From IMG/VR virus record IMGVR_UViG_2778261575_000003: a stretch of DNA of 34,113 nt; one strand, given 5' to 3'. Source of the DNA: a virus (Duplodnaviria > Heunggongvirae > Uroviricota > Caudoviricetes). Shown here piece after piece: positions 1,659 through 20,064 of the stretch (positions are counted from its first letter, which is position 1; every line of letters starts with the position of its first letter). A program made the position numbers and the translations under genes. Below the pieces are notes generated by a model. It saw nothing but the letters and a program-made list of their open reading frames with translations, was not told the DNA's origin and ran no database searches.

Positions 1659-4130
1659 TTAAGAATCAGCCTGACTCGGGATCAGTTTTTGCCAGATAAC
1701 TGAAACGTATTTTGCCTGGTAACGGGCGTCATCAAGTGCATTATGGCGCTCACCTTCGAATGGAATAGCCGTTCTGGCATCGAAGTCTATGGCTTTCCCC
1801 AGCTCAACGATTGTGCGTACATCGCGATCGTTGCAGTAACGCCACGGGCAGGGGATCCCCTGCCGTTCGTATGAACGGCGCAAAATCGTGTTGTCGAAGT
1901 TGGCTCCATTTCCCCAAACCTGAACAAAAAATTCACCGGAGTTTTCGTCGATAAATTCCCGCAATTGTAACAGTGCATCATCTAACGGGATTTCATCGGT
2001 CATAATGGCAGATTGCGCTTCGCGTGATTGCTTAAGCCACCATTTAATGGTGTCCCGATCAATGACTCCGCCAGCAGTTTCCAGATCGATAGTCTTACTA
2101 AATTCCGGTCCCATATCTCCGGTTTGCGGATCGAAAAATATTGCACCTATTGAGATGATCGGGGCATCAGGATTTTTTCCCATGGTTTCAAGGTCGATCA
2201 TTAGATGGTCACACGTCCTGCTGGTGGATGTGATTTCGTGATGACCGTTCACCTTAATTGGGTGATCTGCCGTCTCGCCAGTTTCATTATCGCTATTGTG
2301 ATGCTGATTGCCGCCAGTGTTCTCCTTGTGTGGATGTTCAGCGCCTTCCATTTCCTCCGGATCATCTTCCTGAACTTCAACCTGATACTCTTCATCGAAT
2401 GTTTCTTGGTATGTTGCGTCGCCCATCACCGCGCCACAATCAGGGCAGTTGCCGCCGCCGGTCTGACCGCAGGCGGTGCAGACTTTTTCCACTTCCTGTT
2501 GCGCCACTGGTTCAGGCTGTTTCGTTTCTGGCTCGTTTTGTAACGCATTTGGACTGTTTTGTTCCGCTTTTTGGTAGTTCCGTTCCGATTCATGCTGGTT
2601 CTGGTTCACAGAATCGCGGGTCTGGATCCCCTTAACCCATTTCGGATCATTCGGGTCACTAATCCCTTCAACAAATTCACCACGTGATGCAGCAAGCAAC
2701 TTATCGGCGTCAGGCTGGCTGATATTGGCTGCCTGCATAATTTTGTTTACTTCGTCAGCGGTAACTTTTATCGGCTCTGGTTGTTCTGAATCTTCAGCGG
2801 TATCTACATTTTGCGGTAAGCCCGTGTATGTGCCATTTTTTCGGGCAAAATATTCTTCTTTTGTGATTTCAGTGGCGCCAGCAGCCAGTGCCTTATCCAG
2901 ACCAGAAAGTTTGTTTGCGCGACCGTATTTTTCTCCGTCCTTATCTGCGAAGAGGAAATAGAACGGCCCCTCACGCTCTACAGATGGTTCAGCTTCCGGC
3001 GCGGTTTCATTTTTTGGGATATCAGATACCTCAGTTTCCACTGCATCAGTTTGTGTTTCTGATGACTGGAGAACATCAACAGTGCCCAGGTCTGTTTCTT
3101 CATTCTCAAACACGCCCTTTGTCGTCAGGTATTCGCAGATATATTTGTTCAGTGCTACGGGATCTTTGTGAATGTCGATCGGACGCTCACGGACAAGGCC
3201 AAAAATAGTTTGGCGGTCGTAGCGAAGGGCATCAGGCTGTTTGCGCATTGATGCCGAGATACGCTTCCAGTCTTCGCGGTCGTTGTCGATAACTTCTTTT
3301 TTTGCCCAGCGATGGATGCTGCCGTCAATGTTTCCGGCATCCACATCACCAGGCCAGAGAGCGTAGGCCAGTTCGTCATCCAGTGTTTTCCATGTCTGCT
3401 TGTATTCGCGATGAATGGCAGCAATGACCGGGCTGATTTTTCCTGTTGAATTTTCAGTGTACTGTTGATTGGCTCTGGCGCGGGCGAGATCAACAACAGA
3501 CGTGTATTTTCCGGTTTCCTTGCGTTCACCTTCGCGACGTTTTTTCCAGATGCGCATCTCTGCCTGAATTTCGGGCCATTTAGCACCAGGAATACATTTA
3601 TGCTTAACCCACCCAATGGCGTGCAACTTAAGCTCCGGATACATGGCGTTAACTTCTGGCATTTTCATCAACGCTTCAACGATATGTCCGTCGAATGTTG
3701 CCATGTCTTCCTGCAACAATTCCTGTGCGCTAATAACCATATCAACGGTGATGTTTTCACATGTGTCGAACTTAACCATGACAGCGTTCTGTACTTCAGG
3801 GGCCAGCTTGTCAAAAGTGACGTTCATCGGATCGGATTCAGTCTCAACCGGGACAAAAGAAGCAGACTCCTCATCCCAGCGGTTTTCCTGCATATATTCA
3901 GCATCCCATGAATCGAGGGCAGGGCGGGGTATGCCAGGTTTATCCTCGCAGACAATAAATTTATAAGCGCAGTCCTGAGCAGCCGGATAATGTTCCAGGA
4001 ATTGCCAGTGAAATTTTGCTCGAGCACGGCGTTCGTCGCCAGCTTCAATGGCTGTGGCTACAGCCACAGCGCCTTCTTCCCTTGTTGCCAGTTCGTCAGG
4101 AATAGCGGCGCAAATAAAGACTTTACTCAT
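1659..4130 (-). CDS. RecE-like exonuclease (exodeoxyribonuclease VIII family) with C-terminal DEDDh 3'-5' exonuclease domain
   Basis: 823-aa ORF. Central segment LLAASRGEFVEGISDPNDPKWVKGIQTRD matches my recollection of RecE. C-terminus carries DnaQ-like motifs (MIDLETMG ... HNALDDARYQ). ATG at 4130 with a GAGG upstream. Confidence 0.75.
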   Translation of the reverse strand: MSKVFICAAIPDELATREEGAVAVATAIEAGDERRARAKFHWQFLEHYPAAQDCAYKFIVCEDKPGIPRPALDSWDAEYMQENRWDEESASFVPVETESDPMNVTFDKLAPEVQNAVMVKFDTCENITVDMVISAQELLQEDMATFDGHIVEALMKMPEVNAMYPELKLHAIGWVKHKCIPGAKWPEIQAEMRIWKKRREGERKETGKYTSVVDLARARANQQYTENSTGKISPVIAAIHREYKQTWKTLDDELAYALWPGDVDAGNIDGSIHRWAKKEVIDNDREDWKRISASMRKQPDALRYDRQTIFGLVRERPIDIHKDPVALNKYICEYLTTKGVFENEETDLGTVDVLQSSETQTDAVETEVSDIPKNETAPEAEPSVEREGPFYFLFADKDGEKYGRANKLSGLDKALAAGATEITKEEYFARKNGTYTGLPQNVDTAEDSEQPEPIKVTADEVNKIMQAANISQPDADKLLAASRGEFVEGISDPNDPKWVKGIQTRDSVNQNQHESERNYQKAEQNSPNALQNEPETKQPEPVAQQEVEKVCTACGQTGGGNCPDCGAVMGDATYQETFDEEYQVEVQEDDPEEMEGAEHPHKENTGGNQHHNSDNETGETADHPIKVNGHHEITSTSRTCDHLMIDLETMGKNPDAPIISIGAIFFDPQTGDMGPEFSKTIDLETAGGVIDRDTIKWWLKQSREAQSAIMTDEIPLDDALLQLREFIDENSGEFFVQVWGNGANFDNTILRRSYERQGIPCPWRYCNDRDVRTIVELGKAIDFDARTAIPFEGERHNALDDARYQAKYVSVIWQKLIPSQADS

Positions 4131-4772: not shown

Positions 4773-4827
4773 AACGGCGGCAGAGCAGTCACGGAGTAAA
4801 ACTGATACCGCCAAACGTCACCAGAAA
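4773..4827 (-). ncRNA. dicF: DicF small regulatory RNA (ftsZ-targeting sRNA)
   Basis: Reverse complement of 4776-4827 reads TTTCTGGTGACGTTTGGCGGTATCAGTTTTACTCCGTGACTGCTCTGCCGCC followed by a U-run, matching the recollected 53-nt DicF; correct position upstream of dicB. Confidence 0.85.
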
Positions 4828-8644: not shown

Positions 8645-11300
8645 CCTATTTAAACATTCCTTAAACTCAGAGTAGACTGGGTTAACAATCTGTTTCAATT
8701 GCAAATTGACAATCTATAGCCAGCGCGACGGGAGTGTTCATGTTTAGTCAGGTTGACATCGGTAGTTTCGGTAGTTTTACGGACCTCAGTTGGAAAAATA
8801 GCCTTAAGGATGCAGGTAACAATGTCCAGAATTTCAAGAGGCTTAACATCCTCTACGGACGGAACTACTCTGGTAAAACTACACTCTCACGAATTTTCCG
8901 CGCTTTGGAAACGGGGCGCATTCCACATAACTACGTGGACCCAAATTTTACTATTCGTGGTGACAAAGGTGATGTGACACAGGTAGGTCTTGCTGGTCAT
9001 GGCTACGATGTTCGCGTCTACAACCGGGATTTTGTGAGCGATAACCTAAACTTCTTGGTCAATCAGACCGACGGCGAGATCAAGACGTTTGCTATCGTTG
9101 GTGAAAAGAATAAAGAAATCGAAGATGCCATTACCGCAATTCAAACTAGGTTAGGCAGTGTTGAATCGAAGGCGGGTCTCCGACATGAGCTTGAAGCTAA
9201 AAAGAAAGAGCGAGATCGAACCAAAGACAATCATAAAACTGCGTCTGATGCTCTAGAGGGCAAACTTCGTTCTCATGCTAACAATAAGATTAAACAGAAT
9301 CGCATCTACGGCCCTGCTGTCTACAACATAGAAAGCATCAAAAAAGACATTGGTTTAGTCAAAAAACCTGGCTTCAGGGCTCTGACAACCGAAGAACAAG
9401 CAGCCAAGGTCAATCTCTTGAAGCAAGAGGCCTTGCCTGATATTAACGATACCGTATCGATAAACCTCAACATCGAATCAATAAGCAAAGAAGCTGAAGA
9501 ACTCCTTTTAAGATTGATTGAGCCTACCCTGCCAATTCAGGAGTTGTTGAATGAGACGGCTCTCCAGATGTGGGTGAAGGAAGGTATACCGCTGCACAAA
9601 GATAAGCGGGACACTTGCGCATTCTGTCGTCAGAATCTTCCTCATGATATCTGGCAGGTATTAGGCTCTCACTTCAGTAAGGAATCCTCGGCTCTGGAGT
9701 CAAGTATCGATTCATGTCTGACTTCTATCACCACCGAAATCCAAGCCATTCCTAACTTCTTGACTTTGACTGGCGATAAATTCTACGCAGAAGAGAAAAT
9801 ATTATTTGAAAACAGCAAGATAGAACTTTCTGAACATCTGAAAGACTACATGCAGGACCTCAAAGCTCTGCAGGCGGCGTTGGATAAGAGAAAGAACGCT
9901 ATTTTTCAGCAGGTTCTCATGCCTGTCTATATTCATAATCCGACAGCAATTCAGCAATGTGTGGGCGACATCAATGCTCTGATCGTCAAAAATAATGACC
10001 GCACAATTTCGCTGGAGAACGATAAAAGCACTGCACGAGAATCTCTCCGGCTTACCGATGTGGCGTCTTTTATCGCAGACATCACCTACGATAATGAATT
10101 CGCCCGTATTGCCAGTCTTAAGTCAGATGCTAACACAGCCAACACTGCCTTTACCGAAACTGAAGCTGAAATTTTTGAACAAGAAACCGAAGTGACCCGT
10201 TTACAGGGGCAGCAGAAGGATGAACGCAAGGGCGCGGAGCGAGTCAATGAGTTGCTCAGCCACTTTTTTGGTCATGACGGCATCGAACTTGAAGCAAAAG
10301 ACAATGTTGAGAATACTTCGGTTAAGTTTGAAGTCACCAGAGATGGCAAATCAGCCTACAACTTGAGCGAAGGAGAATGCAGCCTGATTGCTTTCTGCTA
10401 CTTCATGGCCAAGTTGGAAGAGCCTGAAAGCAAAGGTAAGGATCTGATCATTTATATAGATGACCCGATTTCCAGTCTTGACGGAAATCACATTTTCTTC
10501 ATGTTCAGCTTGATTGAAAGCCTGATTGCGAAACCCATTAAGAATTTAGATGGAACAAACAGCTATCGCTATAAGCAGCTTTTTATATCCACCCACAACC
10601 TAGATTTCTTGAAATATCTGAAGAAAATATCACTTCCTAATGAAAGGAATCATGGTGGATGCCAACATTTAATCGTTGAGAGAAATGGAGGGGCAAGTCA
10701 GATTTCCCTGATGCCTTCATATTTGCGAGACTACATCACTGAATTCAACTACCTGTTTCATCAGATTTACAAGTGCCGTAATCAAGTTGGAGCGAATGAA
10801 TCTCATGAACCATACTATGGATTCGGTAACAACCTCCGCAAGTTCCTTGAGGCATTTCTGTTCTTTAAGTTCCCGCACCATGATGACAAGAACGATGCCT
10901 TTGAACGGATCAAGAAATTCTTTGGCGAAGAGGATTCAACAGCGATAGCTCTTGTGAATAGACTTAACAACGAGTTTTCACATCTCGAATCAATTCCTGA
11001 TCGCGGATTCAAACCTGTGGAGATTCCAGAAATTTCCAAGGTAGCCAACTACGTGTTAGACAAGATTTATGCGTCAGATCCGCATCAATACAATTCCTTG
11101 TTAAAAAGCATTGGCGAACCACCAAGGTTATCTTAGGAAAAAGAGTATTAAGAGTTTTTTACGGTAAGCGAGGTGCTATTCGGATCTGGAATGCACCTCT
11201 CAAACACACCGGATGAGCACTCAATGATGTACGGACAATCGGAACACTCAAAAGAGAGTGGAGCTAAACAGGTATGAATAGTAAATGTCCGCTTCTCGCT
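8530..11300. other. AT-rich accessory insertion (defence moron) within the prophage early region
   Basis: Visibly lower GC and AT-rich codon choice compared with flanking phage genes; contains a single large gene (8740..11136). Confidence 0.6.
8740..11136 (+). CDS. AAA_13-family ATPase with coiled-coil/CxxC insert and C-terminal nuclease-like domain (RloC/PrrC-like anticodon nuclease candidate)
   Basis: 798 aa from ATG 8740 (GGAG 5 nt upstream). Walker A LYGRNYSGKTTLSRI, long charged coiled-coil insert with CAFCRQ, Walker B DLIIYIDDPISSLD, FISTHN, then a ~200-aa C-terminal domain with NNLRKFLEAF...PHH (R-x3-E...H). Confidence 0.75.
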   Translation: MFSQVDIGSFGSFTDLSWKNSLKDAGNNVQNFKRLNILYGRNYSGKTTLSRIFRALETGRIPHNYVDPNFTIRGDKGDVTQVGLAGHGYDVRVYNRDFVSDNLNFLVNQTDGEIKTFAIVGEKNKEIEDAITAIQTRLGSVESKAGLRHELEAKKKERDRTKDNHKTASDALEGKLRSHANNKIKQNRIYGPAVYNIESIKKDIGLVKKPGFRALTTEEQAAKVNLLKQEALPDINDTVSINLNIESISKEAEELLLRLIEPTLPIQELLNETALQMWVKEGIPLHKDKRDTCAFCRQNLPHDIWQVLGSHFSKESSALESSIDSCLTSITTEIQAIPNFLTLTGDKFYAEEKILFENSKIELSEHLKDYMQDLKALQAALDKRKNAIFQQVLMPVYIHNPTAIQQCVGDINALIVKNNDRTISLENDKSTARESLRLTDVASFIADITYDNEFARIASLKSDANTANTAFTETEAEIFEQETEVTRLQGQQKDERKGAERVNELLSHFFGHDGIELEAKDNVENTSVKFEVTRDGKSAYNLSEGECSLIAFCYFMAKLEEPESKGKDLIIYIDDPISSLDGNHIFFMFSLIESLIAKPIKNLDGTNSYRYKQLFISTHNLDFLKYLKKISLPNERNHGGCQHLIVERNGGASQISLMPSYLRDYITEFNYLFHQIYKCRNQVGANESHEPYYGFGNNLRKFLEAFLFFKFPHHDDKNDAFERIKKFFGEEDSTAIALVNRLNNEFSHLESIPDRGFKPVEIPEISKVANYVLDKIYASDPHQYNSLLKSIGEPPRLS

Positions 11301-11493
11301 AAATAAAAGCGGACTAGAAGGTTAGCTTGCATCGGACTTTGCATATTTAAAGAAGTGCTGGTGGTGACTGGTTGCTGTTTTTCATTTCCACAGAACAAAA
11401 TCAGAGAAACTATATCTAATAGTTGCATTGAATCACTGACGAGACAGCCTCATATTTATCAGGACTGGTGTACGTCCAATACAGGAGGTTGTG

Positions 11494-11583
11494 GTGCTGG
11501 TTCTCAAATGTGCGCTGGCTATTGCGGCTGTAATGGCGATTTATTTTCTTGCCATTGTTCTTATGGATCGCCTTTCTGACTGA
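11494..11583 (+). CDS. Candidate small hydrophobic membrane peptide (type I toxin-like)
   Basis: 29-codon ORF (V)LVLKCALAIAAVMAIYFLAIVLMDRLSD starting at GTG 11494 (in-frame GTG also at 11491), 5 nt after a consensus AGGAGG (11483-11488). Below the ORF-track size cutoff. Confidence 0.35.
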   Translation: MLVLKCALAIAAVMAIYFLAIVLMDRLSD

Positions 11584-11794
11584 TTGCATATTGGCGAGGT
11601 AACGGGAGTTAAGTAGAATGCCTGCGGGTGCTTGAGGCTATCTGCCTCGGGCATGAACACCAAAGGCAGATAGAGAAAAGCCCCAGTTAACATTACGCGT
11701 CCTGCAAGACGCTTAACATTAATCTGAGGCTCAATCTATGCTGAACACATGTAGGTTAGCCTCTTACGTGCCGAAAGGCAAGGAGAAGCAGGCT

Positions 11795-11950
11795 ATGAAG
11801 CAGCAAAAGGCGATGTTAATCGCCCTGATCGTCATCTGTTTAACCGTCATAGTGACGGCACTGGTAACGAGGAAAGACCTCTGCGAGGTACGAATCCGAA
11901 CCGGCCAGACGGAGGTCGCTGTCTTCACAGCTTACGAACCTGAGGAGTAA
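11795..11950 (+). CDS. hokD: Hok-family type I toxin (HokD/RelF-like)
   Basis: 51 aa MKQQKAMLIALIVICLTVIVTALVTRKDLCEVRIRTGQTEVAVFTAYEPEE from ATG 11795 with AAGGAGAAG RBS. An in-frame upstream ATG at 11738 gives a 70-aa mok-like extension. Leader hairpins follow, then a terminator. Confidence 0.9.
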   Translation: MKQQKAMLIALIVICLTVIVTALVTRKDLCEVRIRTGQTEVAVFTAYEPEE

Positions 11951-12020
11951 GAGACCCGGCGAGGGAGAAATCCCTCGCCACCTCTGATGTGGCAGGCATC
12001 CTCAACGCACCCGCACTTAA

Positions 12021-12046
12021 CCCGCTTCGGCGGGTTTTTGTTTTTA
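12021..12046 (+). terminator. Rho-independent terminator after hok
   Basis: CCCGC-TTCG-GCGGG hairpin followed by a T-run. Confidence 0.75.
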
Positions 12047-14712: not shown

Positions 14713-15255
14713 TGCTTTAAATGGGGCAATAGAGATATTGAATCTCATCCCGGGATAAACATTGGGAGTTGAAGGTCCACGCGAACCATTTATCCGGCAA
14801 AATTCCACGCGTAATCCTGTGGTAATTTCTTCTGCATCTCGAAGATTGAGAGCTGAAACGTGAAGCTGGGCATCGATACGCCATCGGATGGGAATATAAG
14901 ACCTTTGCTGCTTTTGTAGTCAAAGTTTTTGACAATTCCTGTCATTTTAGGGGACAGAAAAACTCCTTAATACTGATAACCTGGTGCACCATACACACGT
15001 TCCTGGAGAAAACTACTTTGTTGATAGGGTTTAAGGTGGCTGGATGTCTAAAATAAACATTGCTTCATATGTTCAACTATGAGTTAATGACTGCGTCGGT
15101 TTGAAGAACAGACGATATACGAAGTAGTTTACTAAAGCAGTTCTCATTTCAGGTGTTATTCACTTATTCCTTCTTTGAGTCTCTCCAATTAAGTACGAAG
15201 TCGTTTCTGTTATGCAAACCATTTATGCCGAAAGGCTCAAGTTAAGGAATGTAGA

Positions 15256-15471
15256 ATGTCAAATAAAATGACTGGTTTAGTAAAATGGTTTAACGCTGAT
15301 AAAGGTTTCGGCTTTATTTCTCCTGTTGATGGTAGTAAAGATGTGTTTGTGCATTTTTCTGCGATTCAGAATGATAATTATCGAACCTTATTTGAAGGTC
15401 AAAAGGTTACCTTCTCTATAGAGAGTGGTGCTAAAGGTCCTGCAGCAGCAAATGTCATCATTACTGATTAA
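15256..15471 (+). CDS. cspB: Cold-shock protein, CspA family (CspB-like)
   Basis: 71 aa [38 protein letters not shown]... with RNP1/RNP2 motifs; long 5' UTR typical of csp genes. Confidence 0.9.
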
Positions 15472-15752
15472 AATTCATCGCTCGTCTGTATACGATAACG
15501 AAGAAGGCTGATGCCTGAGTAGAGATACGGACAGAGTAGTGAATATTGGATCTCTTTAATAAAAAGTAAGGAGGTCCAATACATGAAACAATGGCCAGCA
15601 TATTTGGCAAAATCTTAATCAGGAAAAGTATGCTAACCATTGTGGTGAAGTGCAGGTTTGCTGCATGAATAGTTTCACAGCAGAAGCTAACTGCTGGCAT
15701 CGCAAAACAAAGTGCGTAAGTGGATGACTCCCACAAAAAGCACCACAATCTC

Positions 15753-17780: not shown

Positions 17781-18142
17781 GGTAATATTAAATCGGAACA
17801 TTTACATCGCGGAATGTAAAATTTAAATAAAAAGGACTCTTCCATGAGCCAAAATTCCTGAAATCTTAAGGGTAAGATAAAAGGTCTTAATCAGAATGAC
17901 ACGTTTTATTAATAAATAAAGCTATTCTTTCATTGCTGTGTTTTTCTTTACAAAAGTAATCCTTGCTATGGGTGGTTAATCATGCGTTAATGGTGTTCTG
18001 GTTTGTTACAAATTTATCTGAAGCAGTCATTGTTATAATTTTATTATTTGTACCTCTTGAGATTTCCTTGTTGGTTTTTCTCTCTGATATTTTTTTTCGG
18101 ACCATTCTGCCCAAGGGCTAATTTCTTCAAAAGGTAATAATT

Positions 18143-18355
18143 ATGTCTAACAAAATGACTGGTTTAGTGAAATGGTTTAACCCTGAAAAAGGTTTTGGTT
18201 TCATCACGCCGAAAGATGGCAGCAAAGATGTGTTTGTCCATTTCTCAGCAATTCAGAGCAACGATTTCAAAACATTAACTGAGAATCAGGAAGTTGAATT
18301 TGGTATTGAGAACGGACCTAAAGGTCCTGCCGCTGTTCATGTAGTGGCGCTTTGA
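18143..18355 (+). CDS. cspI: Cold-shock protein, CspA family (CspI-like)
   Basis: 70 aa [45 protein letters not shown]...; long AT-rich 5' UTR (17790-18142). Confidence 0.9.
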
Positions 18356-18559
18356 GGTAGACAATATTACAAACCATATTCACTTTAGATGCCCGTGTTG
18401 TCATGGTTCCCAGTATAGAACATCATCTTTTGATGTTTCTGACATGAATCCTTTCGGGGCAAAATGTATCTTTTGTAAATCAATGATGATTACATTTGAT
18501 AATATTTCACAATACTTAAATGCCAGCCGTCTGTCGTTGGATTTAAAAAAGTGAAAATG

Positions 18560-19764: not shown

Positions 19765-20064
19765 TGGTAAACCTTCCATGTGATACGATGGCGCGTAGTT
19801 TGCATTATCGTGTTTATTGTTTCAATCTGGTCTGACCTCTTTGTGTTTTGTTGATGATTTATGTCAAATATTAAGCCTGTTTTTAATGAATAGTGTTGAT
19901 TGCGTAACAAAGTTGAGCCTTGCTGGCATCCAGGAGGGATATGCAACCGACAGATGTATGTAAGGTCGATGTACTCAAACTTTCATACTTTTCCTCTTTT
20001 ATGCAGAAAGATTTGAAGTAATATTTTAACCGCTAGATGACGAGCAAACGCATGGAGCGACAAA

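Follow-up and report, generated by a model that had tools for sequence, protein, structure and literature searches.

A 29-codon hydrophobic reading frame beside hok/sok in Qin-like prophages is probably a membrane microprotein gene

The small reading frame, its peptide and its predicted promoter

The window analyzed here (the whole 34,113-nucleotide stretch of IMG/VR virus record IMGVR_UViG_2778261575_000003, Caudoviricetes) has the marks of a Qin-like lambdoid prophage. Between a large AAA_13 gene (8734-11136, plus strand; Pfam) and mok/hok (11738-11950) it contains a 29-codon open reading frame (ORF) for a hydrophobic peptide, which is the subject of this study. A sequence-only reading of the window had drawn attention to this ORF as a possible type I toxin, and its description of the flanking genes and of the translation signals proved exact. 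The Shine-Dalgarno (SD) sequence AGGAGG (11483-11488, plus strand) is followed by the 5-nt spacer TTGTG and a GTG start codon at 11494; sense codons extend to 11580 and a TGA stop occupies 11581-11583, giving an ORF at 11494-11583 on the plus strand with the product MLVLKCALAIAAVMAIYFLAIVLMDRLSD. The ORF overlaps, as that reading also stated, a Cys-rich 74-aa ORF (11355-11579) in another frame.

The ORF-listing program places the start one codon further upstream, at GTG 11491, which would give 30 aa. This GTG is missing in about half of the homologous copies that we collected, which have TTGTC or TTATC ahead of the start instead, and we therefore take GTG 11494 as the conserved start. The SD is kept as CAGGAG(G/A) with fixed spacing in all 149 scorable copies, and one copy found separately (L006) has AGGGGG in the SD position. 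AGGAGG occurs 14 times on the plus strand of the window and never on the minus strand, with a start codon 4-9 nt downstream in 4 of the 14 cases; the pairing of such an SD with such hydrophobicity is rare in the window and goes beyond what chance would produce.

The 29-aa peptide has a grand average of hydropathy of 1.83 and a best 19-residue hydropathy window of 2.73, and ranks second in hydropathy among the 338 window ORFs of 20-50 aa. The sole small ORF above it (19780-19854, plus strand, 24 aa) lacks a consensus SD. A single transmembrane helix is predicted at about residues 6-23, preceded by a short N-terminus with K5 and followed by an acidic, charged tail (MDRLSD); by the positive-inside rule, the N-terminus is predicted to lie probably inside and the acidic tail outside. 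One face of the helix is Ala-rich (A7-A11-A15), with a spacing suited to helix packing. The peptide matched no NCBIfam or PHROG family (E up to 10), no Pfam family (E up to 1) and no PADLOC model (0.01). An exhaustive HMMER search with the 30-aa form against 1.84 billion representative proteins returned seven matches in all, each at least 83% identical, and the peptide string was found neither in the main texts of the papers searched nor in the supplements of the Sakai small-gene paper.

A sigma-70 promoter is predicted upstream of the ORF, with a -35 box TTGAAT (11428-11433), a 17-nt spacer and a -10 box CATATT (11451-11456) on the plus strand. In a position weight matrix (PWM) scan of the plus strand from 11250 to 11700 it scored 11.7, second to the promoter of hok (11.8), and both stood far above the rest; the score corresponds to about the 98-99th percentile of shuffled 50-mers. 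A simple consensus scan does not list this promoter because it has 8 of 12 consensus positions and the rule of that scan is 9 of 12. The -10 box is kept in 148 of 149 copies and the -35 box reads TTGAAT, TTGAAG or TTGATT in 130 of 149, including copies of the HannyBb type, in which the spacer has diverged. Transcription is predicted to start near 11463, which would give a leader of about 30 nt. The corresponding mRNA (11463-11625) folds no better than shuffled sequences (z = +0.98), and its SD is touched by a 3-bp stem only.

Upstream of the promoter lies a conserved non-coding block at 11384-11427 (up to 11436 if a divergent site is included), whose conservation in the profile equals or exceeds that of the ORF. 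Within the block lie the palindrome AACTAT-N5-ATAGTT (11408-11424; inverted repeat I1), with invariant arms and a variable center, and a divergent promoter-like site on the minus strand, GTGATT-16-TATAGT, running from 11436 to 11409 (PWM 8.8). The block may be a candidate regulator site. Copies of the HannyBb, E. albertii and BL21 types lack it but retain the ORF. We considered the palindrome as an operator of the prophage repressor and rejected this, as the window holds no second copy. Two short direct repeats, D1 and D2, are 11-mers of a size expected by chance.

Preservation of the frame and existing records

To follow the frame across homologues, we collected copies from viral contigs with a 17-mer at the start of the ORF and, separately, with a 19-mer in the leader, the latter avoiding ascertainment on the ORF itself. 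In the leader-anchored set the frame was open in all 128 copies; 127 had exactly 29 codons and one, lacking the stop, was 2 codons longer. Over all sources it was open in 155 of 155 copies, representing 26 nucleotide haplotypes. The sequence-only reading had named frameshifts or stops in homologues as evidence that would speak against the ORF; we looked for such lesions and these counts are the result. The two overlapping frames fared differently. The Cys-rich 74-aa frame on the plus strand has stops, indels or a lost start in many copies. A 57-aa frame on the minus strand has lost its ATG or acquired in-frame stops in many copies, and we rejected it as a gene for this reason even though it is an annotated coding sequence (CDS) in phage HannyBb. 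Weak PHROG matches of the 74-aa and 57-aa frames (E = 0.003-0.03) were dismissed, both frames being broken in homologues.

We then compared synonymous and nonsynonymous changes, a check proposed with the original description of the ORF. Every minor allele was counted once, and the null model placed the same transitions and transversions at random. The ORF frame showed 12 synonymous changes, 16 replacements and no stop, against a random expectation of 8.5 synonymous changes, and pN/pS from these counts was 0.47. The replacements were of the types A/T/V, I/V, M/I/V/T, F/C/Y, D/E, R/H, L/F and S/T. Their mean BLOSUM62 score was +0.44, compared with -0.35 for random placement, and their mean hydropathy change was 1.55, compared with 2.89 (P = 0.0007; joint P = 0.00025). 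The check thus came out in favor of a translated frame, with conservative replacements.

A copy of the ORF is already listed in a published catalogue. Table S4 of 'The Cryptic Bacterial Microproteome' (Fesenko et al., PMC11188072) contains the copy of E. coli BL21(DE3) (NC_012971.2, 1591437-1591524, minus strand), with the peptide VLVLKCTLAIVAVMAIYCLVIVLMDHLSD, as cluster Escherichia_98807 of the 'Entero67K' predicted-coding set, with dN 0.074, dS 0.161 and dN/dS 0.46. A re-analysis of retapamulin-assisted ribosome profiling (Ribo-RET) of BL21(DE3) gave a weak signal in the same table, with a translation initiation site count of 13, a ribosome-protected fragment count of 38 and 90% coverage of the ORF; known small proteins with similarly low counts there are ecnA (8), ynhH (10) and yaiA (17) (PMC11188072 Table S4). 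We checked the catalogue coordinates on the BL21 sequence and found the equivalent GTG and the same frame as in the window; the BL21(DE3) peptide is 82% identical to that of the window. In BL21 the module has been fused by a deletion behind a truncated DUF977 gene, with loss of its own promoter, and only about 20 nt before the GTG, containing the SD, are kept. In our extract of this locus (L174, from NC_012971.2) the DUF977 CDS (3486-3845, minus strand) overlaps the first ~13 codons of the ORF (3439-3525).

The distribution of the module was determined with a 346-nt query (11280-11625) against 5426 complete E. coli genomes. The ~320-bp ORF module was matched in 1761 of them, and in 1647 at least 80% of the query was covered, mainly at 90-95% identity; genomes with the module carry a median of one copy and a maximum of four, nearly all chromosomal. 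Among the phages of our collection, searched also with tblastn, the ORF occurs only in four E. coli phages, Tritos, Evi, mEp460_ev081 and HannyBb. We also screened one genome per prokaryotic species with a codon pattern degenerate at wobble positions; outside E. coli, the matches were confined to E. albertii, E. ruysiae and Shigella flexneri, apart from three contigs of metagenome-assembled genomes (MAGs). The latter are short contigs of MAGs labeled Collinsella, Scatousia and Haemophilus (L130, L131 and L133) that carry the E. coli-type module nearly unchanged, and they most likely reflect contamination of these bins by E. coli prophages. With no wider homologues and no Pfam, NCBIfam, PHROG or PADLOC match, we regard the ORF family as an orphan restricted to lambdoid, Qin-like prophages in Escherichia and Shigella.

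The ORF had been described as unannotated. This is true of strain ECCHD184, whose copy is identical to that of the window, and of 39 of 40 sampled RefSeq genomes, which have no annotation under the match. It does not extend to all records: the Prokaryotic Genome Annotation Pipeline (PGAP) occasionally calls the ORF, as the 29-aa 'hypothetical protein' WP_000960667.1, and GenBank contains identical or near-identical 29-aa entries, among them OSK39484.1, which has exactly the peptide of the window, and products of REL606 and BL21 named 'membrane protein' or 'conserved hypothetical protein'. The ORF is therefore already on record, as GenBank and RefSeq hypothetical proteins and as one microprotein catalogue entry. 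Escherichia_98807, WP_000960667.1, ACT39199.1 and OSK39484.1 belong to the same gene family as the window ORF, the BL21 start being at the equivalent GTG. These records list an ORF, in the catalogue with counts and rates, and supply neither a promoter nor module borders, context, a relation to hok or a function. What is newly added here is the promoter prediction, the borders of the module and its independence of hok, evidence that the overlapping frames decay, an association with a variable defense slot and the negative results for an antitoxin RNA.

Could the frame instead be a chance opening in a conserved non-coding regulatory spacer, with 11384-11600 acting as promoters, an operator or a recombination anchor? 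Several results point this way and weigh against a gene. Taken by itself, the synonymous excess is weak (P = 0.086), and the absence of stops is uninformative (P = 0.78 under random placement). The copies differ little, by about 7% within the ORF, which limits the power of the substitution test and is too low for a strong test of dN/dS. The ORF is conserved barely above the non-coding segment 11384-11490, with its palindrome and two promoter-like sites, and because this segment is nearly as conserved, part of the conservation of the ORF may reflect recent spread. The promoter is a prediction that falls short of the 9/12 rule of the simple scan, and the start-site signal in BL21(DE3) amounts to 13 Ribo-RET reads from a promoter-less copy behind a truncated DUF977 gene. 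The phage tblastn, degenerate-pattern and HMMER searches gave no homologue beyond Escherichia and Shigella on which deeper conservation could be tested, and hydrophobic ORFs arise easily in intergenic DNA (PMC11188072).

Other observations are hard to reconcile with a chance frame. One of three overlapping frames alone is open in all copies, its replacements are significantly conservative in hydropathy, and AGGAGG at optimal spacing is retained in virtually all copies. Recombination has also respected this unit: left junctions lie upstream of the -10 box or of the SD, the right junction lies no more than about 15 nt past the stop, and BL21 retains the SD and the ORF despite the loss of everything upstream. 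We consider a chance frame unlikely; in our judgment the ORF is very probably a genuine gene with a low level of translation. The view of the sequence-only reading that a small gene here encodes a hydrophobic helix with a charged C-terminus is supported by a frame kept in all 155 copies, by the decay of the frames that overlap it, by the conservative nature of its replacements and by the weak published start-site signal of the BL21 copy.

Module borders, hok/sok and candidate antisense RNAs

The usual left border of the module is a GC-rich hairpin at 11287-11314. Homology to the left ends at about 11280-11309 in 104 of 123 copies, near 11280 in 63 and near 11300 in 41, and the latter junctions cut through the hairpin. 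The hairpin resembles a terminator on the minus strand only, and in this copy only; we rejected it as a terminator, since its tail lies in the variable flank and the junction falls inside it in 41 copies. Shorter left borders occur in HannyBb-type and E. albertii copies, which start at about the -10 box, and junctions in other prophages reduce the conserved unit to the -10 box, leader, SD and ORF.

On the right, the statement that the region has no other explained feature needs correction, as the promoter of hok begins next to the ORF and the ORF itself apparently has its own. The hok promoter (TTGGCG-17-TAGAAT, 11591-11619, plus strand) belongs to the hok/sok module and not to the ORF; its -35 box starts 8 nt past the stop codon, and the 5' end of hok mRNA is at 11626. 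Rfam places the hok leader and sok at 11626-11800 (115.6 bits). A minus-strand 'sok' match of 19 bits was treated as noise, and so, or as a terminator resemblance, was a sub-threshold match to isrK, an Hfq-binding prophage small RNA (sRNA) of Salmonella, covering the hok 3' end and terminator AACCCGCTTCGGCGGGTTTTT (11959-12040, plus strand; 25.7 bits, gathering score 50).

A hok leader follows the ORF in 140 of 149 copies, and the distance from stop to leader is 42 nt in 139 of these 140. The terminator scan found no terminator between the stop and the hok promoter in hok-linked copies. The constant spacing and the missing terminator would fit a role of the ORF as a cis-acting accessory of hok/sok that would occlude the promoter, extend the hok mRNA at its 5' end or titrate Sok. 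We regard this as very improbable. Nine of the 149 copies keep the module without hok; those from E. coli and Shigella genomes have a convergent DUF1971/TehB-like gene next to it, with homology ending no more than about 15 nt past the stop. Conversely, 933W, Sakai and other Shiga toxin (Stx) phages carry the same hok module but not the ORF, their homology to the window beginning only at about 11606. Nor would an exclusively cis-acting function account for the conservative amino acid replacements. As each is found without the other, the ORF unit and hok are separate modules, although they mostly occur side by side.

The gene directly to the left of the module is highly variable. Among 101 loci with enough upstream sequence we counted 41 unrelated clusters, on either strand, including QueH, a HAD hydrolase, DUF5677, an FRG-domain protein, a SIR2-like protein, DUF4145 and an ABC-three-component system. 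With so many unrelated neighbors, the module can be described as the conserved right border of a hypervariable cargo and defense slot, and the small ORF is independent of any single cargo gene. The slot itself spans about 8650-11300 in the window (with equivalents in loci L001-L172), between the DUF977/replication genes and the ORF module. In the window its cargo is the AAA_13 gene, whose 800-aa product matches over its full length the PADLOC candidate single-gene defense system PDC-S06 (1067 bits) and has a PrrC-like segment at residues 500-631. Assignment of the window to the Qin-like lambdoid prophages follows from the DicF sRNA (4775-4826, minus strand) and two cspA-type thermoregulator leaders (15095-15487 and 17997-18382, plus strand) of cold-shock-protein paralogues; homologues of Rem and DUF968 are also present.

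The remaining claim of the sequence-only reading, that the ORF bears the signature of a type I toxin, was not supported. A type I toxin-antitoxin module would consist of a membrane-damaging toxin whose synthesis is repressed by a small RNA, either antisense or divergent. In size and build the peptide conforms to such toxins: it has 29 aa, where fewer than about 60 are usual, and one predicted hydrophobic transmembrane helix with a charged tail. It is also borne by a prophage and adjoins another type I system, hok/sok. This generic shape is, however, common to many harmless small membrane proteins, the peptide matches no toxin family in NCBIfam, Pfam or PADLOC, and no antitoxin RNA was found. 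Characterized E. coli type I toxin mRNAs have long leaders that sequester the SD. The predicted ORF mRNA has no such long, structured leader hiding its ribosome-binding site; its leader is short, without unusual folding, and leaves the SD nearly free.

We looked for an antisense RNA on the opposite strand, as had been suggested, and found neither a conserved promoter nor a conserved terminator there. No Rfam family was detected in 11137-11625 (E up to 1). The sole suitably placed site for a cis-antisense promoter is TTAACT-18-TGCAAT on the minus strand (11612 to 11583), just 3' of the ORF, which scores 4.8 in the window. A -10 box of TAAAAT, which raises the score to 12.1 and is picked up in Tritos by the simple scan, is present in 64 of 154 copies, and an RNA from this TTAACT-18-TAAAAT site would cross the whole ORF in antisense, which speaks for a toxin. 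The -10 box is TGAAAT in 80 copies and is replaced by unrelated sequence in hok-less copies, and the critical position 2 of the -10 box is G in the window and in 84 other copies. This site stands back-to-back with the hok promoter, and also occurs in locus L002 (2800-2829, minus strand). The scan for minus-strand terminator-like hairpins was negative up to the left-border hairpin, about 270 nt away; this hairpin is missing in many copies, and Tritos has no such hairpin at all.

The divergent promoter-like site upstream of the ORF could likewise drive an antitoxin RNA, and we considered a transcript of about 120 nt from ~11402 to 11283, ending at the border hairpin. It was rejected: its predicted fold is unremarkable (z = -1.06), its complementarity to the ORF mRNA is not in excess (439 of 500 shuffles were at least as good), and copies of the HannyBb, E. 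albertii and BL21 types have lost the region that would encode it while keeping an intact ORF. In silico, then, neither an antisense nor a divergent RNA that would pair with the ORF mRNA was found, and since this defining component was not found, we judge a type I toxin improbable. We give equally little credence to two more speculative proposals, an Escherichia-restricted type I-like toxin under a polymorphic antisense promoter (present in ~40% of copies), or a membrane peptide, perhaps an effector or immunity factor, that cooperates with or counteracts Hok or the neighboring variable defense cargo.

A candidate prophage moron and its comparison with known systems

Taking these results together, we favor, with a probability of roughly 0.7, the interpretation that the ORF is a moron of the prophage, equipped with a sigma-70 promoter of its own, a consensus SD and a GTG start, and encoding a 29-residue single-pass inner-membrane microprotein. 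The features that bear on this assignment are a promoter that is predicted and conserved, a unit bounded by recombination junctions, its occurrence both next to hok and in the absence of hok, downstream of 41 different gene clusters, and, on the other side, no terminator of its own in hok-linked copies. The moron would sit on the right border of the cargo slot, usually but not necessarily with hok/sok 42 nt further on, and would be expressed constitutively at a low level from the repressed prophage. Its product would insert into the membrane with the N-terminus in and the tail out, and might act there through A7-A11-A15 helix-helix contacts, formed with further copies of itself or with a membrane protein of the host or of a phage. 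It would probably not be a lethal toxin controlled by an RNA; superinfection exclusion, modulation of a membrane protein and mild toxicity are candidate roles.

Provided that the ORF is translated, an overlooked membrane microprotein gene is present in about 30% of complete E. coli genomes (1647 of 5426), and PGAP passes over it almost everywhere. If the peptide proved to function in membrane physiology, in phage exclusion or as a toxin, this would be of moderate interest to the small-protein and prophage fields; without a phenotype, the ORF would be one further catalogued orphan microprotein. As a fixed border, the module provides a useful anchor for mining the cargo slot in Qin-like prophages.

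Three groups of known systems invite comparison. With the type I toxins Hok/Gef, Ldr, TisB, ShoB, Ibs, ZorO and DinQ, the ORF shares a small hydrophobic helix with a polar or charged end and a location on a mobile element, and it adjoins one of them in hok/sok. It differs from them in having no sequence relationship, no conserved antitoxin RNA and a short, weakly structured leader with a consensus SD.

AcrZ, KdpF, CydX and MgrB belong to a group of small E. coli inner-membrane proteins that are not toxic and associate with larger proteins of the membrane. From general knowledge of these proteins, the window peptide appears analogous to them in its length of about 30 aa, its single transmembrane helix and its spacing of small residues (A7-A11-A15). 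The ORF differs from their genes in being prophage-borne and genus-restricted, and it has neither sequence similarity to them nor an operon partner.

Classical phage morons (lambda bor and lom, and membrane proteins of the HK97 gp15 type) are units of a gene and its promoter that lie autonomously within a prophage backbone, usually with a terminator. Compared with them, the ORF is much smaller and shows no terminator of its own in hok-linked copies. It would resemble them in its predicted promoter, in forming a compact, junction-bounded unit, in being present independently of its neighbors and in its predicted membrane product.

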